64,000 bases of DNA. Source: a virus. Its lineage: Duplodnaviria; Caudoviricetes. The stretch spans positions 32,001 through 96,000 of the IMG/VR virus record IMGVR_UViG_3300014208_000024. One strand, 5' to 3'. The position numbers and the translations under genes are program-made. Under the pieces are notes generated by a model. That model was not told the DNA's origin and did not search any database. It saw nothing but the letters and a program-made list of their open reading frames with translations. This document shows positions 1 through 16,906 of this stretch, piece by piece. Numbering within the stretch: position 1 is the stretch's first letter; each line of letters starts with the position of its first letter.

Positions 1-282
1 AAGCATTATTAATAGTAAAAGTTTTCATATTACTTATATCATATGAAACTGTGCTACCAATACTACATCCTGCAATAAGATGCATTCCAAAGCTTTTTTC
101 TTCATCTGTTTGTGGCACAACTTCATTTTCACTCTTTGAGAATTTTTTTGACAATTCAATAAATCTCAAAACTTTTTCAATTTTCTTTTCCATAATTTTT
201 TATTTAAATTTTATAAAATATAAACAAATCAATTATAGAAATCAAATATTTTTTCACACTTAATCAAAGAACGTTTTCTTGC

Positions 283-367
283 TGCTGAAGGTGGATTCGA
301 ACCACATTTTAACCGTACTAAGCCGTACTCTGAAGTGACCTTGCAAGGAAAACACCTCTGCTTCAAC
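283..367 (-). ncRNA. Atypical tRNA-like RNA (acceptor stem and T-arm, non-canonical inner arms)
   Basis: GTTGAAG/CTTCAGC acceptor, GTGG-TTCGAAT-CCAC T-arm; no canonical D or anticodon arm. Confidence 0.45.
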
Positions 368-373
368 AATTTG

Positions 374-1042
374 TTAATAACTTTTACCTTCTTTGTATCT
401 TTGTTTTCTTTTTTGCCTACCATTTCCATTATTTAAAAATTTATATGTTGAGGTTAAAGAATGGCAACTTGGACACAACAATTTCAAATTTTCTAATTTA
501 TTATTCTCACTATTTCCATCTATATGTTCTAATTCTATTGGAATTTTATTACTATATTCATTTGTTTTATTCCATCCGCACTCCATACATTTTTCTCCGT
601 ATTTATAAATTAAATAATTTTTATAATTTTTTTCTGGCAAAGAAAAATCTCCATTTTCAATTTTTTTAAATATTGTTTTTCTTTTATATAAATTTCCGCA
701 TATATTGCTACAAAATTTTTTTTGTTTACAATTTAATTCTTGACCACAGTTTATGCATAATCTTATTTTTTTCCTTTTATGATTATTATATTTTGCTGCA
801 CAAGAACTATTGCAAAATTTTTTTTTATTTTTTTTTGATATTTCAAATTCTTTACTACAAGTTAAACAAGTTCTTTTTTCTTTTTGTTCTATAAGATAAG
901 AATATCCTTTTTTGTTTAAAAAAACTTTTGTCGCTTTTGATGTTCTCTTTATTTCTTCTGCAATTTCATTAAAATTTTTTCCAAGTTTTAATAATTTTAT
1001 TGATTTTTTTATCTCTTCATCATTCCATTTTTTGTTTTTCAT
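374..1042 (-). CDS. HNH homing endonuclease with HTH and Zn-ribbon
   Basis: CxxC repeats, ELEHIDG...N...CPSCH; start moved to MKNKKW at 1042. Confidence 0.85.
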   Translation of the reverse strand: MKNKKWNDEEIKKSIKLLKLGKNFNEIAEEIKRTSKATKVFLNKKGYSYLIEQKEKRTCLTCSKEFEISKKNKKKFCNSSCAAKYNNHKRKKIRLCINCGQELNCKQKKFCSNICGNLYKRKTIFKKIENGDFSLPEKNYKNYLIYKYGEKCMECGWNKTNEYSNKIPIELEHIDGNSENNKLENLKLLCPSCHSLTSTYKFLNNGNGRQKRKQRYKEGKSY

Positions 1043-1084
1043 ACTTTTATATTTTATTATAAATAGTATAAAAAAGTCGAAAAT

Positions 1085-1138
1085 GAATTTCGAAACGATA
1101 TTAATACAAAAAAATTTTTTTATATCGTTTCGAAATTC
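1085..1138. repeat. Perfect 17-bp inverted repeat hairpin
   Basis: GAATTTCGAAACGATAT...ATATCGTTTCGAAATTC. Confidence 0.8.
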
Positions 1139-1139
1139 G

Positions 1140-1225
1140 AGCCGATGGAGGGATTCGAACCCCCGATTAAACCTCACGGAACTTGATTACAAGTCAAGTG
1201 GAGTAGACCACTGTCCCACATCGGC
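1140..1225 (-). tRNA. tRNA-Thr(UGU) with extended variable region
   Basis: Cloverleaf, CTTGA-CTTGTAA-TCAAG. Confidence 0.85.
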
Positions 1226-1293
1226 ATATAGGGCTTTTCACCCCGTTTGGCAATGCTTGATTTCATTGAGTCGGCATTTGCTGAAACGACCAG

Positions 1294-1365
1294 AGCCAGT
1301 AGAGGGAATCGAACCCCCGAAATTCTCTTTACGAAAGAGACGCAATCCCCCTATGCGATACTGGC
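1294..1365 (-). tRNA. tRNA-Thr(CGU)
   Basis: TCTCT-TTCGTAA-AGAGA, TTCGA T-loop. Confidence 0.85.
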
Positions 1366-1450
1366 ATTAAATGTTATGACCTCCAAGTTCCGAGTTTAGC
1401 TAAGGCTCGAACTTATGCTTGCCAGCTGCTTGAATACCCATAACACTTTG

Positions 1451-1521
1451 AGCCGTAGGAGAGACTTGAACTCTCGACCCTTCCTTACCAAGGAAGTATT
1501 CTACCTCTGAACTACTACGGC
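1451..1521 (-). tRNA. tRNA-Thr(GGU)
   Basis: TTCC-TTGGTAA-GGAA. Confidence 0.9.
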
Positions 1522-1523
1522 AT

Positions 1524-1599
1524 TGGGGTGTCTGGAGAATTTTGAAATCTCGACCTTCGGCTTCACAAACCGCCACTCTGCCTCTGAGCTACAGACACC
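1524..1599 (-). tRNA. tRNA-His(GUG)
   Basis: 8-bp acceptor, TTGTGAA loop, encoded CCA. Confidence 0.9.
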
Positions 1600-1605
1600 A
1601 TATAA

Positions 1606-1732
1606 AAAGGGGTATAGAATAAACAGGTTGTCTTGGTTGCAAATCCTGGAGTTTAACCAGGACCCATTGAACTAAAGTCAATTGCTCTACACAGAGCTAA
1701 TTTGCGAAGTAACTGTCTAAATTGCCACCTTT
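1606..1732 (-). ncRNA. Y-RNA-like element Y1 enclosing an intact tRNA-like body with UUA anticodon
   Basis: Family stem GGTGGCAAT...AGTTACTTCG; inner cloverleaf ending ACCA. Confidence 0.7.
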
Positions 1733-1864
1733 TAAATTTTAAATATTTTAAAGAACGTTATGGTATGGGCTCCGATGTGGTGTTACCCACATCGAGACTA
1801 CTGCCCCCATCTTTGCAGATCATACATTAACCAGTAGTTTGGTTGTAAATGTACATCAGCCATT

Positions 1865-1939
1865 TGGGTGTTAGAGGGAAATCGAATCCCCGTCAAGGAG
1901 GGTCACAACCTCCACGGACAACCAACAGTCCACTAACAC
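1865..1939 (-). tRNA. tRNA-His(GUG)
   Basis: GGAGG-TTGTGAC-CCTCC. Confidence 0.8.
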
Positions 1940-1941
1940 AG

Positions 1942-2013
1942 CGGGGAAGGAGGGATTTGAACCCCCGACCTCAAAGTTAACAGCTTTTTGCTCTACCACT
2001 GAGCTACATCCCC
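1942..2013 (-). tRNA. tRNA-Asn(GUU)
   Basis: AAAG-CTGTTAA-CTTT. Confidence 0.9.
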
Positions 2014-2016
2014 ATT

Positions 2017-2586
2017 TTATAGTTTATAATTTTCATTTAATCCAGCATGAATTTCTCCATGACAATTTCTACACACCAAAATACATTTATCAACTTCTTT
2101 TTTTAACATTTCTAAACTACAAGATTTTCCAGATATTGTAAAATCTTTTTCTTCTGGATTTAAGTGATGAAATTCTAAAGATTGAGAACATTTTTTATAA
2201 CCACATTCAACACATTCCCCTCCCTTATATTCTATTAATTTTTGTTTTACTTTTTGTCTCCAACTAATAACATTATTAGAGCGTCTTTTTTTAATAGTTT
2301 CTTCATCCATTTTTTTTCTATCTATGGTTATAATATATTTTAAAACAGTAGATTTACTATATTCAAACTCTTTTGCTGTTTTTATACAAGATTTACATTT
2401 ATCATAAAACTCTTGCATTTGAATAATTTTTTCTTCCGTCGGTTTTTTAAACACTTTGAATTTAGATTCTTTTCTACAATGAAAAGAAACTGTTGATTTA
2501 GCACAACCAAGTGCTGTTGCAATTTCGTTATAACTCAAACCTTGAGTTCTTAACTTTAAAATTTCAGTTTTCATACTTTTTACCAT
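2017..2586 (-). CDS. HNH endonuclease with N-terminal HTH repeats
   Basis: CVECGY...LEFHH...CILVCRNCHGEIH. Confidence 0.9.
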   Translation of the reverse strand: MVKSMKTEILKLRTQGLSYNEIATALGCAKSTVSFHCRKESKFKVFKKPTEEKIIQMQEFYDKCKSCIKTAKEFEYSKSTVLKYIITIDRKKMDEETIKKRRSNNVISWRQKVKQKLIEYKGGECVECGYKKCSQSLEFHHLNPEEKDFTISGKSCSLEMLKKEVDKCILVCRNCHGEIHAGLNENYKL

Positions 2587-2660
2587 TTTATTAACATTTT
2601 ATGTTAATAAATAGGTAAAAATTTAAAAATTATAAACACTATTTCAAAGAACTTAAAAAA

Positions 2661-2808
2661 ATCCAGGGAAAATTTGCAAGGGTATAAATTACGTGCTCTA
2701 CCAACTGAGCTATCTCTCCAATTTTGTTTCTATTGCGGAGAGAGCAGGACTCGAACCTGCGACAACGGCATTAACAGTGCGAAGTAACCCTAACGATGGC
2801 CACTGGAA
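2661..2808 (-). ncRNA. Y-RNA-like element Y2 (permuted tRNA, Asn GUU loop)
   Basis: Family stem; order anticodon hairpin, T-arm, acceptor, D-arm. Confidence 0.75.
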
Positions 2809-2839
2809 TTATTTTCAATATTTTAAAGAACATATTTTG

Positions 2840-2913
2840 CGGGTATCAAGGGATTCGAACCCCCATGGTCTTGGTTAACGGCCAAGTGCTTCATCCAGTT
2901 CAGCCAAATACCC
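2840..2913 (-). tRNA. tRNA-Asn(GUU)
   Basis: CTTGG-CCGTTAA-CCAAG. Confidence 0.85.
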
Positions 2914-2917
2914 ATAA

Positions 2918-3138
2918 GAAAATTTCGGGGAAAAGCAGCAAAAGTGTTTTTTCTATTCTCTACCACTGAGCTACATCCCCCATGTTTTGTATGATATTTC
3001 ATACATTAATGCCGTTTTTTGTACATAATGTAGTACATATCCAACATTATTTGGAGGGATGGTGGGATTCGAACCCACGACCTTTTGAATCATAGTCAAA
3101 TGCGAAGTAACTCTTGCAATTGCCACCGAAAAATTTTC
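2918..3138 (-). ncRNA. Y-RNA-like element Y3 (permuted tRNA, AUG/His loop, long acceptor linker)
   Basis: Family stem; TTTGA-CTATGAT-TCAAA; T-arm precedes D-arm. Confidence 0.75.
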
Positions 3139-3140
3139 AA

Positions 3141-3153
3141 TATTTTAAAGAAC
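3141..3153 (-). promoter_or_regulatory. boxA-like antitermination element (representative of about 13 copies)
   Basis: GTTCTTTAAAATA; related copies near 264, 1744, 2641, 2819, 5217, 10263, 10465, 19513, 40571, 40697, 45084, 53024, all in or before RNA-gene blocks. Confidence 0.7.
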
Positions 3154-3158
3154 GTTGT

Positions 3159-3194
3159 AAAACAAAAAACCCAGACTCTTTCGAAATCTGGGTG
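3159..3194 (-). terminator. Attenuator terminator of Thr/His/Asn tRNA operon
   Basis: ACCCAGATT-TCGAAAG-AGTCTGGGT followed by TTTTTGTTTT. Confidence 0.85.
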
Positions 3195-3215
3195 CTTGTT
3201 TTTGTTTTATATGAT

Positions 3216-3305
3216 TTAACTCATAATAGACATATCACACCCAGATAAACATGTGGTATTATGTTTATGTGTATTCGTATTAATATGTATATTACTTGTT
3301 CTCAT
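3216..3305 (-). CDS. Leader peptide MRTSNIHINTNTHKHNTTCLSGCDMSIMS (Thr/His/Asn-rich)
   Basis: 29-aa ORF between promoter and terminator; 5 Thr, 4 Asn, 3 His; contains antiterminator TCTGGGTG. Confidence 0.8.
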   Translation of the reverse strand: MRTSNIHINTNTHKHNTTCLSGCDMSIMS

Positions 3306-3354
3306 TTCTTACTTTATTTTAAATAGTTAAAAAAATTGTTTATTTACCAATTTC

Positions 3355-3392
3355 TACGCAAATATATAAAAAAAGTTACATTAAAAGCAAGT
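3355..3392 (-). promoter_or_regulatory. Class I (probably early, host-RNAP) promoter TGTAAC-N-TAnnTTTGCGTA (representative of about 18 copies)
   Basis: Related motif near 5275, 7773, 10300, 10520, 19770, 23670, 25510, 27265, 27777, 30490, 32392, 33670, 38075, 40988, 42338, 45633, 48740; core resembles the Bacteroidota -7 element. Confidence 0.7.
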
Positions 3393-3443
3393 TTTTTTAT
3401 ATATTTTTTTAAATTATTTTTTTATTAATTGATTTCCAGTGTT

Positions 3444-4136
3444 TTATATTAAGCTCAAAATTGTCCTCTCAACAATTTTTTTCATATAATGCATATCTGT
3501 TTTATTTAAATTATAGTTTGGTGAAATAAAAGGAGCATGTGAATCCCATTTTCCACCCGTATTTCCATCTGTGGATTTTAATATTGTTTGTTTTCCCTCT
3601 CCCCTAAATGCTTTATAAGCGCCATCCTTTTCAGCTGATATTTCTAAAACAACATCTTCATAAAGCACTTCAACATCAACTCTTCCTGGTGCCCCAAACA
3701 TTATTTTATAATCTTCTGTGATTAAATCAAAAACTACAATTAAATTTCCTTTTTCATTAACACTTATATCTTTAATATTAATTGATTTTGGTTTTTCTTC
3801 AGCGCACATTTTACTTATAACCCACTTTATTTCTGAATCAATTTCTTTTTCTGTTTTTTCTGGGATCGGTATAATATTAAATGGATTTGTCAAAACTCTA
3901 TTTCCGCCTGTAAAAAGTAAATATTCTGCTCTTTCTGGAAACCATTTCAAAACTTTATGTTCGCCATATACTGGTTTAATATTATACACTGTTCTTCCAA
4001 CTAAATCTTCAAATTTTTCTATTCCCAATTTTTCTAATTGTTGTTCATATTCTTCTTTTGAGAAATCTCTAAAATTTGTAACATCAATTGTTGCAAGTTC
4101 TTGCAGTCTTTTTTTATATGATTCTGATAAATTCAT
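3444..4136 (-). CDS. Hypothetical protein with N-terminal LSESYKKRLQELA motif (probable virion protein)
   Basis: ORF; start moved to MNLSES; motif shared with 5308..5688. Confidence 0.7.
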   Translation of the reverse strand: MNLSESYKKRLQELATIDVTNFRDFSKEEYEQQLEKLGIEKFEDLVGRTVYNIKPVYGEHKVLKWFPERAEYLLFTGGNRVLTNPFNIIPIPEKTEKEIDSEIKWVISKMCAEEKPKSINIKDISVNEKGNLIVVFDLITEDYKIMFGAPGRVDVEVLYEDVVLEISAEKDGAYKAFRGEGKQTILKSTDGNTGGKWDSHAPFISPNYNLNKTDMHYMKKIVERTILSLI

Positions 4137-4137
4137 T

Positions 4138-4836
4138 TTAATAAGCGTAATTATATTTTGATTTTTTAGCTTTTTCCTTTCTCCATGTGTCATATTCTGA
4201 AGATGTGTTTTCGTCAAACCCAAAGTCAACCACAACAATTTTTGGAACTCCATCTCTTAAAACTTCTCCATAAGAAGATGTTCTTCCAAAATCTCCAGGA
4301 ACTGGATATTGATAATCGCTTATAAAATCTTGCATATCTATTGCAAATTCGTTTTCACTTAAGTCTGGAGCATTACTTCCCCAAAGTCTATCTCCACGCA
4401 TACTTGCCAACCACCTTACAAGATCTTCTGGAGTTGTTTTTGTTAATTCTTTAAATCTTCTTGGACTTACTTTCTTTGCAATTTCCATTTCTATCCACAT
4501 ATCATCTTGATCAACGTCAAACACTCTTGCTAAAACATCATAATTTTGTTTATATCCTTCTGATTCTGCACTATTTTGAGATATTCCCCTATCGTTTAAA
4601 GCAACCTTTAATACCTTCTCATCATCAATTTTGAACACTGCTCTAGATGAGCCAATTCCAACTTTTCCGAGCAAACGTTCTTTTGCATATTTTTGTTTTC
4701 CAGAAAAAGATCTTATATTTTTAAATTCATCGAAATTAAAGCTTGTTGGATAAGCCATTTCGTCAATGTGAAAATCTTTGTTTTCAGCAAACATTTCTTC
4801 AACACATTCTCTTATAATTTTTCTAACAAAATTCAT
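4138..4836 (-). CDS. Protein-kinase-like fold protein
   Basis: GIGSSRAVF Gly loop, VLKVA Lys, IVVVDFG. Confidence 0.65.
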   Translation of the reverse strand: MNFVRKIIRECVEEMFAENKDFHIDEMAYPTSFNFDEFKNIRSFSGKQKYAKERLLGKVGIGSSRAVFKIDDEKVLKVALNDRGISQNSAESEGYKQNYDVLARVFDVDQDDMWIEMEIAKKVSPRRFKELTKTTPEDLVRWLASMRGDRLWGSNAPDLSENEFAIDMQDFISDYQYPVPGDFGRTSSYGEVLRDGVPKIVVVDFGFDENTSSEYDTWRKEKAKKSKYNYAY

Positions 4837-4909
4837 TTAATAATTTTTATATAAATAGTTATAAAATGGAAAAACCCTCACGTTACTTATGCAAGGGTTT
4901 TTTAATATA

Positions 4910-5218
4910 AAGCAATTTTCTGGGAATTCTAGAGTGAGCGGTCACCTCGTATATCTCTGTTCAATTTCCATTATGGAACATCACCTAGTGAGGAACAAAG
5001 TTTAAGGCCAAATGTTTTAAGGTGTTCATTTTTCAACCCATAAACCTTAAGGGTTCATGTAATCTACTCTTTGCCTATCAATTCACCCAACACTTAAGTC
5101 GCAGCTTTAATATTGATTAACGTAAGGCTATGACATCTGAGCCGTTAGTCATTCTTTTTTTTAATGGTACTTAATCGTTGTCGAAGTATCTCAACATCTT
5201 TACCACAAAAAATTGCTT
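4910..5218 (-). ncRNA. Y-RNA-like element Y0 with about 250-nt non-tRNA cargo
   Basis: GTGGTAA...AGATACTTCG 5' arm, TTCCCAG 3' arm, terminal IR AAGCAATTTT; boxA upstream. Confidence 0.6.
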
Positions 5219-5307
5219 CAAAGAACTTATTAACTTATATAAATATAAAAAAAATTTTCATTTTCTATAAGCCTATACGAAAAATTATAAAAAAAGTTTC
5301 AAAAAAA

Positions 5308-5688
5308 TTATTTAAAATATCTAAATCCCTGAAACCCCTTCATAGGAATAGGTTCTATTTTGTGAAAAGGACCAGATCTCTCAATAAATTTTCCACTCCA
5401 ATTCTTTCCAGTGGTTGTACAATTAAAATTTTTTTCGGACATACCAACAATTTTCATCCAACCGATTATCGCTCCATTATATAATAAATAACATTTATTT
5501 CCAGGTTTAGTTTTAGGAAAGTTGTTTACTTTAAAATTCATTACCTGTTTATAATTTTCTACAGCCTTTAATTCCTTTTCATAATCTTTCCATTGAATTG
5601 ATTTTGGAATAGTGACAATAATATCCATTACATTGTCATTTATTCCAGCCAATTCTTGTAACCTGTTTTTATAATTTTCTGTTATCAT
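5308..5688 (-). CDS. Small beta-rich (ASCH/PUA-like) protein with virion-type N-terminal motif
   Basis: TENYKNRLQELAG start; KPGNKCYLLYNGAIIGWMKI. Confidence 0.5.
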   Translation of the reverse strand: MITENYKNRLQELAGINDNVMDIIVTIPKSIQWKDYEKELKAVENYKQVMNFKVNNFPKTKPGNKCYLLYNGAIIGWMKIVGMSEKNFNCTTTGKNWSGKFIERSGPFHKIEPIPMKGFQGFRYFK

Positions 5689-5693
5689 AAAAA

Positions 5694-5894
5694 CTAAGCT
5701 TTTTTATAATTATATTTTGATTTAATCATTGTATCAAAATAATTACCTGGAGAATCTGACTTTATTATTCCATTATATATTGTTTCTGGAACTGAAAAGT
5801 ATTTATATTTTCCGCCTTTAACAAAATCTATTGTTAAAATTTCGGTGGAGTTATTATATTCCACCGATCTTATTCTTGATGAATTTAACTGCAT
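5694..5894 (-). CDS. KTSC domain protein
   Basis: SSRIRSVEY...LTIDF..G.KYKYFSVP...Y....SDSPGNYF. Confidence 0.9.
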   Translation of the reverse strand: MQLNSSRIRSVEYNNSTEILTIDFVKGGKYKYFSVPETIYNGIIKSDSPGNYFDTMIKSKYNYKKA

Positions 5895-5983
5895 ATTCTT
5901 TTTATTTTAAATATACAACAATTTTAAAATAAATTCAATTGAATTATCTATAAAAAATTATTATATTTATTTAAAAAAGACAT

Positions 5984-6142
5984 ATGGAAAGAAATAAACC
6001 CAGGTTGGCCATAACAATTTCTCCTGAAATTGCAGAGAAATTAGAAAAACATAAATACAACAAATCAAAACTTGTAGACTCATTGTTAACAGATTATTTC
6101 AAAAAACTAGATGAAGATGTTGTGAAACATAAAAAAAATTAA
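5984..6142 (+). CDS. Small ribbon-helix-helix-like protein (52 aa, not in ORF track)
   Basis: MERNKPRLAITISPEIAEKLEKHKYNKSKLVDSLLTDYFKK; paralog at 28710..28853. Confidence 0.7.
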   Translation: MERNKPRLAITISPEIAEKLEKHKYNKSKLVDSLLTDYFKKLDEDVVKHKKN

Positions 6143-6204
6143 TTTCACAAGTGCTATTTTTATTTTTCTGCATATTTATAATAAACAATTAAATATTATA
6201 AATT

Positions 6205-6369
6205 ATGGCACGTAAAAAAATTAACCCAGAAAACAAAAAACAACATCTCTCTATTGTTGTTTCTTCAGAAAACTTTAACAGATTAAAAGAATTAGATTTA
6301 AACGAATCTAAATTCATCGACTGGTTATTAAAAGAACATTTCTTTAAATTAGAAAATGGAGGAAGGTAA
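6205..6369 (+). CDS. Small ribbon-helix-helix-like protein (54 aa, not in ORF track)
   Basis: KKQHLSIVVSSENF...NESKFIDWLLKEHF; paralog at 28490..28660. Confidence 0.7.
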   Translation: MARKKINPENKKQHLSIVVSSENFNRLKELDLNESKFIDWLLKEHFFKLENGGR

Positions 6370-6371
6370 TT

Positions 6372-7100
6372 ATGGAAACTAAAATATGCTCTAAATGCCA
6401 TGTTGAAAAACCTAATGATGAAGATTATTTTCCTAAAAGGAATAATAAGCTTGAATATAGATGTAAATCATGTCGTAAAGAATATTACGATATATGGAAA
6501 TTTAATAATGCAGAAGCTAAAAAACAATATGATAAAGATTATAGAGCTAAAAATTATGATAAACTTAAAAAATACACAAACGAATATAATGAAAATTTTC
6601 TATATAAGAACGGTGTAAAACGCCATACAAAATACTGGCAAAACAACAAAGAAAAAATAAAAACAAGAAGAGAGAAAAACAGAAATAATGAAAATATATT
6701 AAGGAACAAAAAAAGGAATGAGAGGCGAAAAGTTGACCCATTATTTAATCTACAAGAAAAAATAAGAACAAAACTTAACAAATTGTTTAAAAACAATGGA
6801 TATAAGAAAAACAAAAAAACAATTGATGTTATTGGATGTTCGTTTAAAAATCTAAAACTATATATAGAATCTAAATTTGAATCTTGGATGAATTGGGAAA
6901 ATCACGGATTATATAATGGACAGTTATATTATGGTTGGGACATAGACCATGTTATTCCATTGTGTACTGCTAAAACAGAAGAAGAATCTTTAAAATTATG
7001 GTATTATACAAATCTCCAACCTCTTTGCAGTAAAATAAATAGAGATATTAAAAAGGATAAAATTAATTTTAACTGTGCAGCAATTTTAAATTTCCCTTAA
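6372..7100 (+). CDS. HNH-like homing endonuclease
   Basis: CSKC...CKSC; WDIDHVIPL...YYTNLQPL. Confidence 0.8.
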   Translation: METKICSKCHVEKPNDEDYFPKRNNKLEYRCKSCRKEYYDIWKFNNAEAKKQYDKDYRAKNYDKLKKYTNEYNENFLYKNGVKRHTKYWQNNKEKIKTRREKNRNNENILRNKKRNERRKVDPLFNLQEKIRTKLNKLFKNNGYKKNKKTIDVIGCSFKNLKLYIESKFESWMNWENHGLYNGQLYYGWDIDHVIPLCTAKTEEESLKLWYYTNLQPLCSKINRDIKKDKINFNCAAILNFP

Positions 7101-7753
7101 ACACCTGTTTAAGGCTTGCTTTTTTCCCTGTTATATGGTCATGTACCAAATCGCTTTTAAAAGTATACATTCTTCTTTTATCTCCCCTAAATCCAGTTCC
7201 AATCTGTTCTTTTCTTTCTCTATGCTCTTTTTCTTTTTTATTAGAATCATATAGTTTTTGTACCCTTCTTGTCAATTCTTTTAGGGCAATTTCTTTGTTT
7301 TTTAGTTGACTTCTATCTTCATCACATCTTACTACCAGTCCAGTGGGAACATGCTTTAAATTCACACAAGAATAGGTGCGATTTCTTGCTTGTCCACCTG
7401 GACCTGTCCCATTTGTGATTTTAATTTCCACATCACTATCCTTTAGTTGGATTTTTACTTGTTGCCCAGGCTCCATTACAGCCACAGTGACTGAACTAGT
7501 GTGAACTCTGCCTTTTGATTCTGTTGGTGGAACACGACTAAACGTATGACCTCCAGCTTCATTTGAAAAGAATTTTTTTACGCCAGCACCGCTAAAGACA
7601 TAAAGAAATACATCCATCTTTCTCTTCTAAAGTAGAGATGGAAAAATTTTCAACCCTGGCCGCTTTTCTATAAACATCAGCCAAATCTTTTGCAAGAAGT
7701 TTTGAATCCATTCCTCCTTCTGCTGCACGAATTTCACAAATAATTGTTTCCAT
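7069..7753 (-). CDS. prfA: RF1-type peptide chain release factor (no domain 1), two ORFs joined by a +1 frameshift at CUU-UAG-C (7597..7591)
   Basis: EIRAAEGG (frame 0); VPPTES PxT motif and GPGGQ motif (frame +1). Confidence 0.85.
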
Positions 7754-7810
7754 AAGTTTTGGTTTTTGATAAATATACGAAAATTTTTCTTAAAAGATAC
7801 AGTTTTTTCA

Positions 7811-7820
7811 ACTATTTATT
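7811..7820 (+). promoter_or_regulatory. Class II (probably late) promoter motif TATTTAT(A/T) (representative)
   Basis: Found 10-30 nt upstream of nearly all virion-motif genes and homing endonuclease genes. Confidence 0.55.
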
Positions 7821-7834
7821 AAAAATATTTATAT

Positions 7835-8992
7835 ATGGAAAAAATTGAACTTACTTTTTTACGCCCAGATGAAGATACTGGGAACTTTATTTATAAAGGT
7901 ACAGATGGAAAAATATACATTAGTATTGATGGAATAATTCATGATGTAACACAAGAAAGAGAGCCTCTCGGTCCTGTTTACAACACATTTGTAAAACCAG
8001 GAGAACCTGTTTATAATCCAGAAGATAGATTTGGTAGAAATCCAGGTAGTAAAATTCAAACAGAAAACCATAAAAAATTAAAAAACTTTATTCAGGAAGA
8101 ATTAATAAAACTTCACAAAATAACACTTCTTGAAGAAGAAAAAAGACAAATCAATAAAGAACTAAGACTTTTAAAAGAAGGAAAAGAAGATTTGGTGGAT
8201 TATGATGTTCCAGAATGGGCAATGTCTGCTTTAATTAATGGAGATTTAAGTGGATTAGAAGATGAAGATATACAAAAAATAAATTCATTTACCGAATCTG
8301 TTGCAAAAGCTCATGGAAATGCTCATTTTATGCTTGGCGATATTGATGGTGAAGATAATCTTGGATTTAAACACTATAATGATATTGATAATTTAGGAAG
8401 CAATGTTTATAGGTTATATATTAATCCAGACAAAGAAACAAGTTTTAAAGATATACCATTTAACAAAAGATTACAAGGTGGAGAATATTTTGTTAAAGAA
8501 ACAAAAGATGTAGATGCAATGTATAAAAAAGCTGGAATGGAACCCCCACATCCTGGAAAAGGAATACATACTAAAAAATTTCACAAATGTGTTACTTCAG
8601 TTGGTGAAAAAGGTGGAAAAAACCCTTATGCTATCTGTATGTCCTCTTTAGGAAAAAATAAAGCTGTAAAAGCAGATCATAGAACAGAAGAAGGAAGTTC
8701 TCCAATGGTAGATGAAATCAAAAAACCAATTGTTCCAATATCCGAAAAAACAAAGGCTGTATTAAATAAATGGATTCAAGAAAAAGGATCAAAAGAAGCT
8801 GCAGTACAATTGATAAATAGATTAAGCGAAACAGGTATGGTTTCTGATCTTCCTGATAGTATGGAATATGGACAAGGAGTTAACAAAATTGAAGCTTTGT
8901 TAAAAAGTGGAAATTTAGATCAAGCATTTCATCTTGCAAAATCTCTAGCAAAAAAATTAGAGAGAAAAGCAATGAAAGACTTTGGATTTTAA
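7835..8992 (+). CDS. Multi-domain hypothetical protein (probable virion protein)
   Basis: ORF; internal KLKNFIQEELIKLHK motif similar to 49260 and 36985. Confidence 0.65.
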   Translation: MEKIELTFLRPDEDTGNFIYKGTDGKIYISIDGIIHDVTQEREPLGPVYNTFVKPGEPVYNPEDRFGRNPGSKIQTENHKKLKNFIQEELIKLHKITLLEEEKRQINKELRLLKEGKEDLVDYDVPEWAMSALINGDLSGLEDEDIQKINSFTESVAKAHGNAHFMLGDIDGEDNLGFKHYNDIDNLGSNVYRLYINPDKETSFKDIPFNKRLQGGEYFVKETKDVDAMYKKAGMEPPHPGKGIHTKKFHKCVTSVGEKGGKNPYAICMSSLGKNKAVKADHRTEEGSSPMVDEIKKPIVPISEKTKAVLNKWIQEKGSKEAAVQLINRLSETGMVSDLPDSMEYGQGVNKIEALLKSGNLDQAFHLAKSLAKKLERKAMKDFGF

Positions 8993-9031
8993 AAAGAAAA
9001 CAAAAAAGCCCCATCTCTGGGGCTTTTCCTT

Positions 9032-9289
9032 TTAAACATTTGGATTAACCAATTTCTGATCAACCCATTTTCCATTTTGTAAAACTTTGTTGACTTTTTC
9101 AACTCTTATTTCCCAAGAATTTGGAAAATCAGCCAACCTCGTTCTTTTTTTAGCTTCTTTGAGTGCCTCAATCTGAGCTTCGTGATATCTTTCACGTTTC
9201 TTAGATTCAGTTTCCACAAAGAAGTGTGGAGCCTCGTAACCCATTCTATGGATTGAACGTACCTTCCACAACCTGATTGTTTGATACAT
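9032..9289 (-). CDS. Hypothetical protein
   Basis: ORF ending at bidirectional terminator. Confidence 0.65.
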   Translation of the reverse strand: MYQTIRLWKVRSIHRMGYEAPHFFVETESKKRERYHEAQIEALKEAKKRTRLADFPNSWEIRVEKVNKVLQNGKWVDQKLVNPNV

Positions 9290-9519
9290 AAAAATTATGT
9301 AGATTTGATCCTAACATAAATTTTCTAATCAGGTTGAATTAAAGAATGTAGAGTTTTTTGTTTTTTTAATCATAGGAATTTTTTTTCAAACAAATTTCTT
9401 AAGTGGATTTTTCCACCTTTGTCTTAAAAGACTCTTTAAAATAGATATAAATATCTTCCTACTATAATAAATAGTAAAAAAAAATCTCAACCCTTTCGAA
9501 TTGAGATTTTTATAAAACC

Positions 9520-10250
9520 CTGAGATTATAGGTTTAGTGAGTCAACTTTCGGGGGATTATTGGTTCCCCACCTTATCCACATACCTTGCGGCATGTACCA
9601 ACTCAATCTCGATTGGTTAGACCAATCACCTCTTTCGTCATAAACTACTCTACTGCTACTACCGCCATAACAAGAGTGCCCCCCTGCCATAACATTTCAC
9701 AATAATCCGTTAAACCTTGCGAGTCAAACGTCCCCAGTTCAACCGAAGTTGCCAGGATCTGAGAGACCTTTCGCCTATAACGCCAGCGGAACTTTTGCTT
9801 GCTTGAATTTTTTTCATAAAATTGAAGTTGTGCTTTTAATTGAAGATGTGCCGCTGGAACAGCTTCGTTCCTTTTGGGAACGAAATACTATACACCCTCT
9901 GCGCCCTTTTGCATCGGTACGCTCTCACCTTCGCCGCCCTGTAACTCTTACGAGAACGAGAACTCCAAAGATAAATGGAACACGCTCTAAAGCTTGCTAA
10001 ACCTTGAACATTATTCCTCGGCTTTTCCTATTGCCCCTTTCGGAGATCAACCGCCTCAAGCACTTCAGAGACGATATTTCACTCAGCAGTTGCCCTTGTG
10101 AAATGTACTAACCTATTGTATGCTCGACTTCTTTTCAAAAGCGACAAGATATTAACCTCGCCTTTATCCTGGTCACCCAGTTTATTTTCCTGACCCTTTC
10201 GGATCAGGCTTGACCACCAGTAGGTTGTCAACGACAGCACACTGCCATAA
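9520..10250 (-). ncRNA. Large structured ncRNA, GOLLD-like (about 730 nt)
   Basis: GC-rich non-coding island with many GNRA/UUCG hairpins, own promoter, boxA and terminator; size and tRNA-proximal phage context fit GOLLD. Confidence 0.6.
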
Positions 10251-10370
10251 ATTTTTTATCAATATTTTAAAGAACGTATCTTACTTAATTTTCTACTCTA
10301 TACGCAAAGATAAGAAAAAAGTTTCAAAAAAACAAGTTTTTTTTATTTTTTTTTTAAAAAACTTTTTTTA

Positions 10371-10454
10371 AGAGACGTAACCAGGCTGCTCAACCACTAC
10401 CCTTGCTTTCTTCCGAACCTGGGGGAGTTCGTAGGAGCCTGCCTGTTACGCTTT
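10371..10454 (-). ncRNA. ffs: Small SRP (4.5S) RNA
   Basis: Long hairpin with CAGGTTC-GGAA-GAAAGCA domain IV motif; boxA and promoter upstream. Confidence 0.85.
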
Positions 10455-10592
10455 ATCTTAACTATATAAAGAACCTTTGTGAATGTAAATATTTAAAAAA
10501 ATCTTATTTACACACATCTATACGGAAAAAATTTAAAAAGGTTACAAGAAACAAACATTTTTTTTAATATTTATTATAAATACATTTATATA

Positions 10593-10982
10593 ATGAAAGA
10601 AAATCTAAGAAGCCTTATTAGAGAAGAAGTATCAAAACTATTTGAAAATTGGGAAGATGATTATATAAGCTCATTTGAATATGAAGATATTCCAGATATG
10701 CAACCAGGAGGAGAAGCTCATAAATCATTTTTAAGAGATCTAGAAAAAGAACCAGAAATGGGAACTTATAAAGAACCAACTGAACAGGAATTGGAAAATA
10801 TAATTCAAGGATTACAACAAGCAAATTTAGAATTACCAAGCGATCAAGAATTAATTAATCAAGCAGAAGAAGATATGCAAAGAAAATTAAACAATTCCGA
10901 AATAGAAAAAATAAAAAGAACTAAAAAAAGAATGGAAAAAATTGCTGGAGCAGGAACATTTAATGAATCTCAAACAATATAA
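10593..10982 (+). CDS. Hypothetical acidic protein, N-terminal LRSLIREEV motif
   Basis: ORF. Confidence 0.7.
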   Translation: MKENLRSLIREEVSKLFENWEDDYISSFEYEDIPDMQPGGEAHKSFLRDLEKEPEMGTYKEPTEQELENIIQGLQQANLELPSDQELINQAEEDMQRKLNNSEIEKIKRTKKRMEKIAGAGTFNESQTI

Positions 10983-10984
10983 TT

Positions 10985-11680
10985 ATGAAAAATTTTATCA
11001 GAAAAATTATAAAAAAACAAATAAACATTTTATTTGAAAACTCCTTAGAAGAACTAAACTCTGGACTCACAAGAGATCAAAAACAAATTGATATGGCAAG
11101 GAGACTTATGGGAGATGATTCAATTATTGTTTTAAACAAATTAGACTTTGGAGAAGAATTAACTTTCAGTGAAATGGAAGAAGCAAGAGACAAATATCTT
11201 GCAGATTATATATTCGCAAAGGCAAAATTAAACGGAAAAAGAAAAGTTGTTAATCCAATAAACCTAGAAGACTTAGAAGCTATATTTAATGTAAAAGGAA
11301 ACGTTTTAGATGGATATATGAATATATTAGTTAATAAATTTTCAAACGTCGAACAAATAAGCGATCTGGAAAGAAGCGCTTTGTTAAACATTGGAGGAGT
11401 AGATACCCCAACTAATGCAAGCAATGAAATAGCAAAAAAATATATCATTAAAATGCTTTTAAACTTAGATGTTCCTCAAGCTGGAGACAATAAGTGGACA
11501 AGAAATGATAGCATAGAAGCACACAAAGCTTACCAAATTGCAATGACAGATGAAGAATTTAGAAATATTGTTGAGAAAGTTCTGCAAAGAAGTGGAAAAC
11601 AAAATTCTAGATTATATAGAAAATTGAAAAAACTTTCAATTCCTCCAGTACCAGAAAAACCACTGGAAGAAATAAATTAA
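10985..11680 (+). CDS. Hypothetical protein, N-terminal IRKIIKKQI motif
   Basis: ORF. Confidence 0.7.
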   Translation: MKNFIRKIIKKQINILFENSLEELNSGLTRDQKQIDMARRLMGDDSIIVLNKLDFGEELTFSEMEEARDKYLADYIFAKAKLNGKRKVVNPINLEDLEAIFNVKGNVLDGYMNILVNKFSNVEQISDLERSALLNIGGVDTPTNASNEIAKKYIIKMLLNLDVPQAGDNKWTRNDSIEAHKAYQIAMTDEEFRNIVEKVLQRSGKQNSRLYRKLKKLSIPPVPEKPLEEIN

Positions 11681-11715
11681 CAAAAAACCCCCAAATTTCT
11701 CTGGGGGTTTTCTTT

Positions 11716-12099
11716 TTATAAACCGTATTTTCTGAAATAAGCCGTATTTGACATACTGGCATGTTCACTAGAACCACCCTTATCAAGAATGTAAAGTTTA
11801 AATTCTTCTGTGTCTAATTCAATTTCAGACTCAACTTCCATTTCAAACATCTTAATAAAGTCATCAAACATACCAACTCTATCAATTGGTTCAACTAAAC
11901 TTAAATGAAGTCCATTTTTCCCTTCTTCTAAGTCTTTTTTAATCTGCTCTAACTGTGATAAACCCTCAAGTTTATAAGCCTTTTTTGCTTTTGCATACTC
12001 AACAATGTGATTTTCTTTGTTTTGTAACAAGGCAGCAATAACCTCTTTCGTTTTTACTTTGATTTTTCTTTGCATAATTCTAGAAATTGGTGTTCCCAT
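11716..12099 (-). CDS. Hypothetical protein
   Basis: ORF; start moved to MGTPIS. Confidence 0.7.
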   Translation of the reverse strand: MGTPISRIMQRKIKVKTKEVIAALLQNKENHIVEYAKAKKAYKLEGLSQLEQIKKDLEEGKNGLHLSLVEPIDRVGMFDDFIKMFEMEVESEIELDTEEFKLYILDKGGSSEHASMSNTAYFRKYGL

Positions 12100-12220
12100 A
12101 ATTTTATTTTTAATTATATGCAAATATATAAAATAATTATTATAATACAAAATAAATAGCAAACTTTTTAAGTTCAACTTCAATTATCGTTTTTTATAAT
12201 ATTTATATAAAAAATAAATT

Positions 12221-13027
12221 ATGAATAAATGTTTAAATTGTGAAAAAGAAACAAAAAATGAAAAATTTTGTTCTATAAGTTGCCAAAATAAATTTCAAAA
12301 ATCAAAACAAATTGATAAAAGACTGGGATTATTTATTGAGTTTACAATTAAGTGTTTTAAATGTGGAGGTTCGCTCGTTGTTAGAGAAAGAGAAAAATTA
12401 TTCCCACAAAAAGAAAAATACTATTGTAGTAGAAATTGTGCTAATTCAAAACCTCATAGTGATAATACAAAAAATAAAATTAGAAAAAAAGTCAAAGATT
12501 TTATAAGAAAAAATCCAGATAAATATGGGAAGGGCGTTGTGAAAATAATTTGTAAAAAATGTCTTAAAGAGTTCGTTGTTCCTTATGGACAAAGAGATAG
12601 ACAGTTTTGTTGTAAAAAATGTGCTTCTGAATGGATGAAAAATTCTCCTTTATCACAAACAACTGGGTTGTTATCTTCACAAATACAAAAAAAATCAAGA
12701 AGAAGTAAAAACGAAATGTATTTTGCTGAATTATGTAAATCTTATTTTAATAAAGTTTTAACCAACGAACCAATGTTTAATGGTTGGGATGCAGATGTAA
12801 TAATTGAAGATATAAAAACTGCAGTTCTTTGGAATGGAAAATGGCACTATGAAAAAATAACAAAAAACCATTCTGTTAAACAGGTTCAAAATAGAGATAA
12901 AATAAGAATTAAGGAAATAGAGTTAAAAAACTACAAATATTATATAATAAAAGATATGGGAAGATATGATTTAAAATTTGTTAATAAAGAATTTGAAAAA
13001 TTTATAAAACATGTTGGAAAAATATAG
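12221..13027 (+). CDS. Zn-ribbon plus PD-(D/E)XK (Vsr-like) endonuclease
   Basis: CxxC/CSxxC repeats; SKNE...WDADVII...WNGKWHY. Confidence 0.75.
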   Translation: MNKCLNCEKETKNEKFCSISCQNKFQKSKQIDKRLGLFIEFTIKCFKCGGSLVVREREKLFPQKEKYYCSRNCANSKPHSDNTKNKIRKKVKDFIRKNPDKYGKGVVKIICKKCLKEFVVPYGQRDRQFCCKKCASEWMKNSPLSQTTGLLSSQIQKKSRRSKNEMYFAELCKSYFNKVLTNEPMFNGWDADVIIEDIKTAVLWNGKWHYEKITKNHSVKQVQNRDKIRIKEIELKNYKYYIIKDMGRYDLKFVNKEFEKFIKHVGKI

Positions 13028-13035
13028 TAACAGTG

Positions 13036-13112
13036 TAGCAACAGTGGGATTCGAACCCACAAAAATCCTCCGCCTTATGAGAGCGTTGCGCTACCAATTG
13101 CGCCATGTTGCC
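13036..13112 (-). tRNA. tRNA-Met or Ile2 (CAU)
   Basis: CGCT-CTCATAA-GGCG. Confidence 0.8.
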
Positions 13113-13120
13113 ATTAAAAT

Positions 13121-13329
13121 AATGATGTGTGAAAGCCTCCTACTTTCATAATCTCACTGACTTACACAGTTAGAGAGTCTCGGAATTTCACAACAAAGAC
13201 AATTACAATCAAACAAATGCTAATTCTTTACGAAATGAGCACCTTGCTTTAACCGTGTTGCCAAACACATCGCCTTTGTTGATCTACTGCTGAACTCTTA
13301 ATTACAGCTCTTATGCAAACACATCACTT
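13121..13329 (-). ncRNA. Rod-shaped ncRNA with central bubble, 6S-like candidate
   Basis: Closing helix GTGATGTGT/ACACATCAT, 13-bp CAACAAAGGCGAT/ATTGTCTTTGTTG, symmetric 11-nt bubble. Confidence 0.5.
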
Positions 13330-13408
13330 GCTTAAAAACAATTCATGCATTAATTGTTAGAAAGCGGGGGAAACACTCTCTCCTTTGCAAGTAAAGATTG
13401 TGAATCCT

Positions 13409-14311
13409 TTATCTTATAATATTTAATTCCTTTTCAGTCCATACCTCAAATGGTATGTTATTTTTTTTACAATATTTTTTAACAGCTTTAATTTTTTCTT
13501 TATTATTCCATCTATTTAACAATCTTTTTGGCTTAACTTCAACTATTTTTTTTAGTTCTTCTTTGTAAAAAATTTCAAAATCTATAATTGTACTTCTTTT
13601 TCCATTCCTATATTTTATATTGTATGGCTCGTAATTATAATAAAGAACATTATCATCTTTTTCTAATATTTCCATAGCTATTAACTCATAAGAACTTCTG
13701 TATTTTATTTCTTTTTTATTTTTATTACTATAATAAATTCCACCTTTATATTTTTTATGTGATGGAGAAATCCCAAACATTCCATTGCTTTTTCCGCTAT
13801 TTTTTCCTTTTATAGAATTTGATATTTTCTTTTTCACATCCTCGCTTTGTGATGCACATTTTTTAGAACAATAAATGTTTTCATGCTTATTAACTTCTTT
13901 TCCACAAAATTTACATCTTGGTTTTTCTTTTATATTTTTTTTCTTACCTGCTTCAATACGCTCTATTAAAAATCCAAACGCACCATTTTCTCTAATGCGT
14001 TTTTTTATAGAATCTCCTATGTTTTTTTTCGTTTTTTCTGATTGAATTCTTTTGTTTGCACAACTTCTAGAACAAAACATAGAATATTTTTTTTTCTCAA
14101 AATCTGTTTTTTTTAAAATAATCTCATATTTTTTTCCACATCTCAAACATCCAAACTCATACTCTAATCTTTCTATTTTTCTACTATTAGATGCTTTTTG
14201 TATCATGTTTTTTTTGTTTGGGTTTTTTTTACAATTAATTATATGACCACCAAGTTGTTGTTGCTTGTCATATTTTATTAATTGTCCACAATATTTACAT
14301 TTTTTTTCCAT
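13409..14311 (-). CDS. Homing endonuclease, Zn-ribbons plus TnsA-like PD-(D/E)XK domain
   Basis: YRSSYE...YEPYNIKY...IDF...IVEVKP. Confidence 0.8.
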   Translation of the reverse strand: MEKKCKYCGQLIKYDKQQQLGGHIINCKKNPNKKNMIQKASNSRKIERLEYEFGCLRCGKKYEIILKKTDFEKKKYSMFCSRSCANKRIQSEKTKKNIGDSIKKRIRENGAFGFLIERIEAGKKKNIKEKPRCKFCGKEVNKHENIYCSKKCASQSEDVKKKISNSIKGKNSGKSNGMFGISPSHKKYKGGIYYSNKNKKEIKYRSSYELIAMEILEKDDNVLYYNYEPYNIKYRNGKRSTIIDFEIFYKEELKKIVEVKPKRLLNRWNNKEKIKAVKKYCKKNNIPFEVWTEKELNIIR

Positions 14312-14365
14312 TTTTTTGTATTTATTTTACTATAAATATCAGCAAAAAATAAAAATTGAACTCTG

Positions 14366-14437
14366 AGCGGTATACTGGATTTAAACCAGCGACCTTCACA
14401 TTGGCAATGTGACATTCTATCACTGAACTAATACCGC
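14366..14437 (-). tRNA. tRNA-Gly(GCC)
   Basis: TCACA-TTGCCAA-TGTGA. Confidence 0.9.
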
Positions 14438-14440
14438 ATA

Positions 14441-14607
14441 AAATTAGGGAAATTTCGAACTAAGCATTTTTCTTTTTCTGCCCCATTTAACCACTCTGGA
14501 ACCCCCCCGAATTACTCCTTATTTGTCGAGGGGGATGGATTCGAACCACCGAAGGCTTACGCCAGCAGATTCCTTATCGAAGTAACTTAATTTGTTACCA
14601 CTAATTT
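14441..14607 (-). ncRNA. Y-RNA-like element Y4 (permuted tRNA-Tyr-type body, no anticodon loop)
   Basis: Family stem; long variable arm, T-arm, acceptor, D-arm CAGAGTGGTTAAA. Confidence 0.75.
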
Positions 14608-15387
14608 ATATTTTTTATTCCAATTTTCTATTTTGTTTTTTAAATCATCTAATGAAATAGAACATTTTTTATTTTTACTTGAATTATTTGAATGAACCAT
14701 TAATTTGCAATTTGCTGGATGAGAAATAATATTTGAATCAATTTTTTGTTTAAAACCTTCCGAAATTGAAAACATGTGATCTCTACTAATTCCATTTAAG
14801 TTATTCCCTTTATTCTTTGCACAATACCATCCAAATTTTTTAATCAACTCAAAGTCAAATTCTTCTACGAAATCTTTTAGATTAAAATTAAATCGACACT
14901 CTGATTTATATATATTAAATTCAGTCATCTTTTTTTTATCAAAAATTTTTCTACAATTTATCCCACAAAATTTATTTTTTCTTTTTTTAAATGGCAAAAT
15001 AGCATTACACTCTAAACAAAAATTTGGATTTTCATAATATTTGTCAATACCATTTTTTTTAATATTAGCATTTTTAATGTTTTCTTTTGCTTTGTCACTA
15101 AAAACAACTTTTCTGCCAGTATTTTTCTTATTGTTAAATGATGTAGAACAACTTAAAGAACAAAAAGTATTAAACCTTTTTTCGTATGAAATTAAATTAC
15201 CACAATGTTTACATTTTTTAATATCAATTTTAGGTTTATGAAATTCATTATAACAAGTTAAGGAACAAAAATGTTTTCTTCCCATTTTTTCACTTCTTTT
15301 AAATTCTGTTTTTGTTTTTTCAAACTCATTTTTACAATTTTCGCAAATTATTAAAATTGTTTTTCTATTATTCTTAAAAATTTTCAT
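14587..15387 (-). CDS. Zn-ribbon HNH-like homing endonuclease
   Basis: CxxC repeats; ISRDHMFSI...HPANCKL. Confidence 0.75.
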   Translation of the reverse strand: MKIFKNNRKTILIICENCKNEFEKTKTEFKRSEKMGRKHFCSLTCYNEFHKPKIDIKKCKHCGNLISYEKRFNTFCSLSCSTSFNNKKNTGRKVVFSDKAKENIKNANIKKNGIDKYYENPNFCLECNAILPFKKRKNKFCGINCRKIFDKKKMTEFNIYKSECRFNFNLKDFVEEFDFELIKKFGWYCAKNKGNNLNGISRDHMFSISEGFKQKIDSNIISHPANCKLMVHSNNSSKNKKCSISLDDLKNKIENWNKKYKLVVTN

Positions 15388-15459
15388 ACTTTTATTTTTC
15401 TTATAAATATTAAAAAAAAATAAAAGTGGAGTTTTTTTGAGTCGAACTTGTATGCTTAG

Positions 15460-15533
15460 TGGAAGTGAAGGGTTTCGAACCCTCATACCTTATGCTTGCA
15501 AAGCATCTGCTCAGCCAATTGAGCTACACCCCC
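15460..15533 (-). tRNA. tRNA-Ala(UGC)
   Basis: TTTGCAA loop, G3:U70. Confidence 0.9.
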
Positions 15534-15615
15534 AGATTTCCTATTAACTCTTCCATTCACCCTAAAGTGGGTGGGTTTACAGAACTTCGGAAAGACTTTC
15601 GTCTTGTTCAATTAG

Positions 15616-15689
<74 letters not shown>

Positions 15690-15780
15690 AAATGATAGTC
15701 TTTCCCATCTGTCACCCTTAGATGTGATTATTAAAAATAATCAGTGTATTGCGGGTTGTCTACACCATCCTTTTTCAAAA

Positions 15781-15927: not shown

Positions 15928-15945
15928 TTATCTTAAATATGTTAA

Positions 15946-16098: not shown

Positions 16099-16102
16099 AT
16101 TG

Positions 16103-16902: not shown

Positions 16903-16906
16903 ATTT

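Follow-up and report, generated by a model that had tools for sequence, protein, structure and literature searches.

The window analysed here, a stretch of 64,000 nucleotides, belongs to a single virus record of 372,283 bp with 28.7% G+C, in which 45 of the 46 tRNA genes lie on one strand within the first 77 kb. Only two public sequencing runs contain this DNA, both of them groundwater DNA and none RNA. Near the left end of the window (1139-3393, minus strand), an operon of tRNA and other small RNA genes is preceded by a promoter-like element, a short leader open reading frame (ORF) and an intrinsic terminator, the putatively regulated RNA genes spanning 1139..3126 (-). The features are as follows:

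3355..3393 (-): promoter-like element of Bacteroidota type, reading TTG, 21 nt, TATATTTG, then GCGTA
3306..3354 (-): untranslated 5' leader kept among the units, in which a conserved AACTATTTAA box and an A-rich tract lie 5' of the ATG
3216..3305 (-): leader ORF, its length kept in two close relatives, with in-frame +3/-3 indels in a second groundwater sample
3252..3299 (-): putative control codons 3-18, the Thr/Asn/His cluster
3245..3268 (-): local hairpin ATAAACAT / ATGTTTAT within the ORF (codons 13-20), core of a long hairpin able to hold the antiterminator strand
3238..3246 (-): candidate antiterminator 5' strand ATCTGGGTG, assigned by complementarity (ORF nt 60-68, codons 20-23)
3186..3194 (-): CACCCAGAT, candidate antiterminator 3' strand and terminator 5' arm (plus one base) in one
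3158..3193 (-): intrinsic terminator, a 10-pair hairpin (3193-3169) followed by a T-run
3133..3156 (-): boxA-like element AACGTTCTTTAAAATATTGAAAAT, directly 3' of the T-run
about 2932-3126 and 2669-2807 (-): Y-RNA-like RNAs, nearest to YrlA in Rfam, below threshold
2839-2913 and 1941-2013 (-): two tRNA-Asn (GTT)
2017-2586 (-): HNH-type ORF inserted among the RNA genes of the operon
1866-1939 and 1524-1598 (-): two tRNA-His (GTG)
1634-1706 (-): tRNA with a UUA anticodon
1450-1521, 1293-1365 and 1139-1225 (-): tRNA-Thr GGT, CGT and TGT, respectively

The promoter-like element, which we take to resemble the -33/-7 consensus of Bacteroides promoters, occurs in 12 copies in the genome, which lie 5' of stable-RNA units. 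Fifty nucleotides past it begins the leader ORF, with 29 codons running from an ATG to a TAA stop. The ORF has no Shine-Dalgarno sequence, and its start context matches that of 169 long phage genes, about 1% of which carry GGAG; an A-rich stretch 5' of the ATG without a Shine-Dalgarno sequence is the general arrangement of genes in this phage. The terminator hairpin starts 19 nt past the leader stop codon, and an A-rich tract 5' of the terminator is able to lengthen its stem. The boxA-like element AACGTTCTTTAAAATATTGAAAAT is found four times in the window, always on the minus strand, against 0.01 copies expected; its position is conserved in other phages, and it must be transcribed, since in another unit it follows closely on the promoter. 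Within it, GTTCTTTAAA resembles the boxA of rrn operons.

Accompanying RNA genes and neighbouring ORFs

Four RNAs on the minus strand (2669-2807, 2932-3126, 15789-15897 and 15974-16057) contain a tRNA-like part in reversed order, with the 3' half before the 5' half, and share a 5' cassette ending in GTTACTTCGCA. Their nearest Rfam family is YrlA, at 25-45 bits and below the gathering score. A permuted-tRNA identity was considered for the two RNAs 3' of the terminator and dropped in view of the YrlA likeness and of a TROVE/Ro-type protein, the usual partner of Y RNAs, encoded by the phage (51831-52688 (-), 65 bits). The window also holds a GOLLD RNA (9517-9900 (-), 227 bits) and an SRP-like small RNA (10370-10453 (-), 42 bits), both behind a copy of the promoter described above and a boxA-like element, without a leader ORF or terminator.

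Anticodons that match stop codons are found in three tRNA genes of the minus strand, one UUA (1634-1706) and two CUA (42251-42324 and 43335-43409). In the putative UUA suppressor, the T loop is odd and the D loop short; since all six leader ORFs of the genome described below end in TAA, a working suppressor made from the Asn/His/Thr operon could let ribosomes pass the stops of the leaders. An ORF with a GGQ motif, of the release-factor or peptidyl-tRNA-hydrolase type, lies at 7069-7617 (-), and the Cys-rich HNH-type ORFs between tRNA genes of the operon (374-1177 and 2017-2586, both (-)) are probably homing endonucleases.

Codon composition of the leader

The earlier note had counted five Thr, four Asn and three His codons among codons 3-18 of the leader, and this is what the sequence holds, the other four positions being two Ile, one Lys and one Ser. 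Thr occupies codons 3, 10, 12, 17 and 18 (three ACA, one ACG and one ACC), Asn codons 5, 9, 11 and 16 (each AAT) and His codons 7, 13 and 15 (each CAT). The tRNAs listed in that note (Thr GGT, CGT and TGT, two His and two Asn) are likewise all present, and every one of the 12 Thr/Asn/His codons is decodable by tRNAs of the operon itself. A density of 12 Thr/Asn/His in 16 codons was reached by just three loci among the 744,472 sixteen-codon windows in six frames of the whole genome, and 10 such codons within 12 by this leader alone among 1,517 short ORFs; on the strength of these two controls, chance or low complexity was rejected as the source of the codon bias.

Searches for known regulatory RNA families at 3159-3305 gave no match to a leader family such as Thr_leader or His_leader (cmscan, E up to 1), nor was a T-box or other riboswitch family detected, the T-box being searched over 1-20000 with E up to 1. 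Elsewhere, sub-threshold matches to His_leader and Phe_leader (27-30 bits) fall in an intergenic region at 11606-11717 (+) and probably reflect a terminator-like fold. Comparison with cultured relatives returned no DNA match for the window (megablast), nor any for the leader regions (blastn).

Six leader units in one genome

The same arrangement was found six times in the genome: a promoter, an ORF ending in TAA, a spacer of 19-34 nt, a hairpin with a T-run, a boxA-like element and tRNA genes. It follows four of the 12 copies of the promoter motif and two diverged copies, together with a conserved leader of about 50 nt. The units, numbered U1 to U6 in genome order so that the one described above is U4, are:

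U1, genome 4098-4193: leader core QSRFQVVFFVQQVQ; tRNAs Gln, Phe, Arg ACG, Val
U2, genome 24225-24305: leader core LSLCLCLLL; tRNAs Leu (five), Cys
U3, genome 31657-31734 (-): leader core IIKKSISIKIKK; tRNAs Lys (four), two Ile (GAT, TAT)
U4, window 3216-3305 (-): leader core Thr/Asn/His; tRNAs Asn, His, Thr
U5, window 19600-19713: leader core PMGGYPCAADADYGCGTGM; tRNAs Asp, Gly, Tyr, Met, Pro, Ala
U6, window 40863-40949: leader core WSSRRRSSSR; tRNAs Ser, Arg UCU/CCU, Trp

When leader composition was tabulated against the tRNA sets (6 x 6), the diagonal was maximal in each row and each column, and the true assignment of leaders to tRNA blocks ranked first among all 720. For five of the six leaders, the count in a 12-codon window was unequalled by any other of the 1,517 short ORFs of the genome. 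The two units with Arg tRNAs divide the Arg codons accordingly, CGC and CGT (together 9% of the Arg codons of the phage) in the leader before tRNA-Arg ACG, and AGA and AGG in the leader before tRNA-Arg UCU/CCU. As peptides, the six leaders are unrelated to one another. Where the same promoter stands before CUA-suppressor tRNAs, GOLLD/SRP-like RNAs or a protein gene, both leader ORF and terminator are absent, and these units serve as an internal control.

From the Ile and Lys codons of the leader, the earlier note had suspected Ile and Lys tRNAs further along the same operon, to the left of the window. Four Lys and two Ile tRNAs do lie 0.5-1 kb to the left, the two Ile genes (GAT and TAT) having been missed by ARAGORN and detected by Rfam; they belong to a separate unit, however, as they stand behind a promoter-like element, a Lys/Ile-rich leader (266-343 nt left of the window start) and a terminator of their own. 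The antiterminator of this Lys/Ile unit shows two compensatory changes relative to its orthologue in a related phage.

Antiterminator pairing and modelled folding

The complementarity pointed out in the earlier note, of TCTGGGTG to CACCCAGA, is real, the perfect match amounting to nine base pairs between ATCTGGGTG and CACCCAGAT, with a duplex energy of -17.2 kcal/mol. The antiterminators of U1 to U4 comprise 8, 7, 7 and 9 perfect pairs, at duplex energies from -13.6 down to -17.4 kcal/mol, and most pairings of one unit's strand with the terminator of another fall short of -10 kcal/mol. The antiterminators of U5 and U6 are weaker and contain wobbles. In four of the six units, the complementarity is specific to the unit's own terminator. 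In every unit, the control codons lie 5' of the antiterminator strand. The 147-nt stretch (3159-3305) folds at -38.3 kcal/mol, compared with -21.0 +/- 3.4 for shuffled sequences (z = -5.1).

The behaviour of the switch was modelled by masking 30 nt for a ribosome on the transcript as it stands just before the 3' arm of the terminator is made. With the A site at codons 2-15, the 5' arm of the terminator is paired with ORF nt 60-67, and with the A site at codons 17-27 it is free of them. A like flip occurs in U1, U3 and U5 just past the codon cluster of each, so that the pre-terminator model shows the expected behaviour in U1, U3, U4 and U5 and does not in U2 and U6. Of the alternative folds, which the earlier note had proposed to examine, the antiterminator forms in the pre-terminator model, but once the full terminator is present, equilibrium folds retain it at nearly every ribosome position, with no flip in U1, U2 and U6 and with few positions that flip in U4. 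It follows that any switch must be kinetic and that thermodynamics alone does not demonstrate one. The full fold also holds a long hairpin within the ORF, over which the pre-terminator equilibrium fold without a ribosome favours the antiterminator. Because the antiterminator of U4 forms in the pre-terminator fold without a ribosome, or with one at the stop codon, we infer that termination under fast translation rests on timing or on the hairpin within the ORF.

Conservation and covariation among homologues

In two close relatives of the unit (L001 and L297), the ORF again has 29 codons and the pairing, T-run and boxA-like element are all kept, while substitutions in the core of their leaders fall mostly inside the Thr/Asn/His/Lys set. 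The relative behind L001 has an array of two Asn, two His and Thr GGT/CGT/TGT tRNAs, next to which comes a separate Lys/Ile leader followed by four Lys, three Ile and Met. In a variant from a second groundwater sample, represented by one low-depth contig, one 3-nt insertion and one 3-nt deletion both keep the frame, and two synonymous Thr changes, an Ile replaced by Thr-Thr and a His replaced by Asn leave the pairing region unchanged.

A more diverged homologue, L318, has a different terminator, an array of Asn, His, His, Thr and Thr, and an ORF in which GTTCGGG faces CCCGAAC; it retains seven of the nine antiterminator pairs, three of them through compensatory changes. Failure of the pairing to be conserved in homologues had been named in the earlier note as evidence that would speak against an attenuator. 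The pairing is kept: in four aligned sequences, 94% of the cells of the antiterminator helix are paired, and three of its pairs have changed on both strands; sliding the partner strand by 1-3 columns left 12-44% paired. The terminator helix is paired in 100%. As all three compensatory changes come from L318 alone, their support is modest but real.

The homologues also bear on the proposal that the leader mirrors even the Thr isoacceptors. The codons ACA, ACG and ACC and their three tRNAs are indeed present, but for this leader taken singly the match is only suggestive, with a probability of about 0.06 that five draws include all three codons under the Thr usage of the phage (ACT 0.34, ACC 0.08, ACA 0.53, ACG 0.05). 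ACC occurs in four of four homologous leaders, ACG in three of four and ACT in none of the four, with ACT present in the low-depth variant; together with the division of Arg codons between two other units, this lends the isoacceptor match some suggestive support.

Leader units in other phages

The scan required a T-run with the boxA-like motif in viral contigs, and in metagenome contigs the motif alone; the matches were then screened for a hairpin and tRNAs. On unrelated contigs this gave units in which the ORF contains a complement matched to the unit's own terminator, among them the following:

leader core SHNHFNKSTFSNKS: tRNAs Phe, Ser, Asn, His, Thr, Lys
leader core KHSKHFSSSSKWF: tRNAs Arg, His, Phe, Ser, Lys, Trp
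leader core LYYLYLYLY: tRNAs Tyr and Leu
leader core NMNCNNDMD: tRNAs Asp, Asn (three), Cys, Met
leader core PRPERPTEV...EE: tRNAs Glu (four), Arg, Pro

When leaders and arrays of 14 units were reassigned at random, none of 200,000 permutations reached the observed match, and among 12 units compared across phages, the unit's own antiterminator pairing ranked first in its row for 8. On another metagenome contig (L268, Ga0208769_1057121), two tandem leaders rich in Asn, Thr, Tyr and Glu, each with a terminator, precede one boxA-like element and may constitute a double checkpoint. A bacterial origin of the arrangement was rejected, given that the terminator-boxA pattern yielded no unit of leader and array in 120 matches to bacterial or archaeal genomes, the sole tRNA-linked match among them being without an ORF.

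A cultured phage, phiCbK of Caulobacter, shows the layout too (JX100813, 49540-49769 and 51341-51502): short ORFs whose composition fits the tRNA blocks behind them are followed by annotated terminators (49745-49769 and 51465-51502), and these by the blocks. One block consists of a 32-codon ORF with the core QFVRQIQVVRNI, a terminator, and tRNAs Phe, Val, Ile, Ile, Val, Gln, Gln and Gly; in the other, gp083, a hypothetical protein rich in Ser, Leu, Pro and Lys, is followed by a terminator and by tRNAs Pro (two), Lys (two), Leu (three) and Ser (two). The phiCbK genome paper lists the tRNAs and terminators and mentions neither attenuation nor leaders.

Proposed mechanism and alternative explanations

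Taken together, the replication in six units, the occurrence in other phages and the compensatory changes in the antiterminator support the reading of the earlier note, and we consider it likely that the Asn/His/Thr tRNA operon of the phage is controlled by a multivalent leader-peptide attenuator of transcription. The ORF and its codon bias, the terminator, and the complementarity with its conservation and covariation are plain from the sequences; that the ORF is translated, which way the switch works and what the boxA-like element does are inferred. Transcription would begin at the stable-RNA promoter (3355-3393), with the 29-codon leader being translated during synthesis. Should charged Thr, Asn or His tRNAs be scarce, slow decoding of codons 3-18 would stall the ribosome upstream of ORF nt 60-68, leaving these free to pair with CACCCAGAT once it is transcribed and thereby blocking the terminator hairpin. 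The polymerase would then continue, gain Nus factors at the boxA-like element, which by analogy probably loads them on polymerases that have passed the attenuator, and transcribe the Asn/His/Thr tRNAs and the Y-like RNAs. Under fast decoding, the ribosome would cover nt 60-68, or the hairpin within the ORF would re-form behind it, and transcription would stop at the T-run. The phage thus probably makes Thr/Asn/His tRNAs only while ribosomes decode such codons slowly; since the tRNA product relieves the stall, the circuit would be a direct negative feedback on decoding capacity.

The unit might instead sense the general status of translation, for example after host shut-off, or work with the opposite polarity, stalling leading to termination. 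In the pre-terminator fold, the antiterminator is the default and is lost only with a ribosome on codons 17-27, so loss of translation could also yield read-through, and the leaders of phages with a single large array (L030 and L043) are of broad composition. A general sensor, however, needs no unit-specific set of codons tracking the tRNAs behind it, and the control codons of every unit precede its antiterminator strand, as expected if stalling induces read-through; we therefore regard this alternative as unlikely. Far less probable is a ribosome-free sensor resembling the T-box, in which the codon run would pair with anticodons of uncharged tRNAs and so stabilise the antiterminator. It would account for the complementarity of leader codons to the anticodons of downstream tRNAs and for the regulated genes being tRNAs themselves; yet the matched codons share a single reading frame, open from ATG to TAA, in each of the six units and each foreign one, the chance of an open frame of 29 codons being about 0.08 by our own estimate from base composition, and the indels of the variant are in frame, the start context is that of real genes, and no riboswitch family matches.

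It is similarly improbable that the hairpin serves as a plain terminator for a tiny peptide gene or for the upstream gene, with the tRNA promoter residing in the motif at 3133-3161 and the codon match owing to chance or low complexity. A weak sigma-70-like match (9/12) does overlap that motif, and the core of the ORF is poor in G and rich in A. The motif nevertheless occurs past the promoter in another unit, and also within operons, and hence is transcribed, and it is without the TAnnTTTG box, unlike the 12 promoter copies; a chance match is at odds with replication in six of six units and in other phages, with a bias confined to three loci of the genome and with a compensated antiterminator. 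That the ORF encodes a peptide with a function of its own, its composition unrelated to the tRNAs, is hardly to be expected. L001 and L297 do keep the C-terminal half (Cys-x-Ser-Gly-Cys-x-Met-Ser-Ile), but it overlaps the conserved RNA pairing, the N-terminal substitutions preserve composition and not sequence, and the leaders of the six units share no relatedness as peptides.

Comparison with known systems

Multivalent attenuators are known from enterobacteria, the thr leader with Thr and Ile codons and the ilvGMEDA leader with Ile, Leu and Val codons being examples. The phage unit resembles these in having a short ORF with control codons for two or more amino acids, a terminator, and an antiterminator built on the 5' arm of that terminator, and in both cases a stall at any control codon should yield read-through. 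They differ in that thr and ilv govern biosynthetic enzymes whereas the phage unit would govern tRNA genes, so that the product would act on the sensor directly; furthermore, the phage has six units, each with its own codon set and a leader that may cover as many as seven amino acids, the antiterminator strand falls within the ORF, 19 nt ahead of its stop codon, and the setting has Bacteroidota-type signals without a Shine-Dalgarno sequence. The phage leader also has no sequence or covariance-model similarity to Thr_leader or His_leader.

Decoding machinery is under leader-peptide control in E. coli pheST. A His leader has been described upstream of hisS paralogues in bacilli (PMC2965389). Both resemble the phage unit in applying attenuation to decoding genes that serve the very amino acid of the leader, but they regulate synthetases, with one amino acid each, whereas the phage unit would regulate tRNA genes. 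The attenuator survey in question (PMC2965389) makes no mention of tRNA genes or operons. T-boxes similarly sense the state of specific tRNAs through a terminator/antiterminator switch, yet they bind uncharged tRNA directly, by one specifier codon and without a ribosome, whereas the phage unit has an ORF, many in-frame codons and no T-box motif. With the boxA/Nus antitermination of rRNA operons (PMC10250234), the phage units share a boxA-like sequence early in a long untranslated stable-RNA operon. Its position directly after the attenuator means that only polymerases past the checkpoint would be modified.

The tRNAs of phages are generally held to compensate for codon usage, for host tRNA decay or for anticodon nucleases, an idea that explains the tRNA arrays and the usefulness of a supply on demand. 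We know of no regulatory sensor for phage tRNA genes in print, and full-text literature searches turned up nothing on tRNA genes controlled by a leader peptide. Attenuator-like leaders are said to have been noted in the 1980s at the E. coli tRNA-Phe genes pheU and pheV. To our knowledge, the leader-peptide attenuators described regulate only amino-acid biosynthesis and a few synthetase genes, and, as far as the literature searched shows, the tRNA-gene target sets the phage units apart from them.

Implications

Leader-peptide attenuation that gates tRNA genes would close a direct loop between decoding speed and tRNA supply, with a codon bar-code for each block. We tentatively extend this to a codon-resolved and self-correcting tRNA supply, in which each block would be on only when its isoacceptors are limiting, and in which the leaders may sense tRNA-targeting defences and trigger the exact replacement of isoacceptors removed by host anticodon nucleases or by phage-induced decay of host RNA. 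On this possible extension, the codon list of a leader would also foretell what the odd RNAs of its block decode, among them the Y-like RNAs with anticodon-type loops.

The presence of the layout in phiCbK, a cultured model phage, makes the proposal directly testable. If true, leader-peptide attenuation would explain how the tRNA arrays of large phages are regulated and would furnish a sequence rule for finding such units, the composition of the leader predicting the array. The leaders would then be natural sensors of the availability of individual tRNAs, and would link the tRNAs of phages to the tRNA-targeting defences of their hosts.
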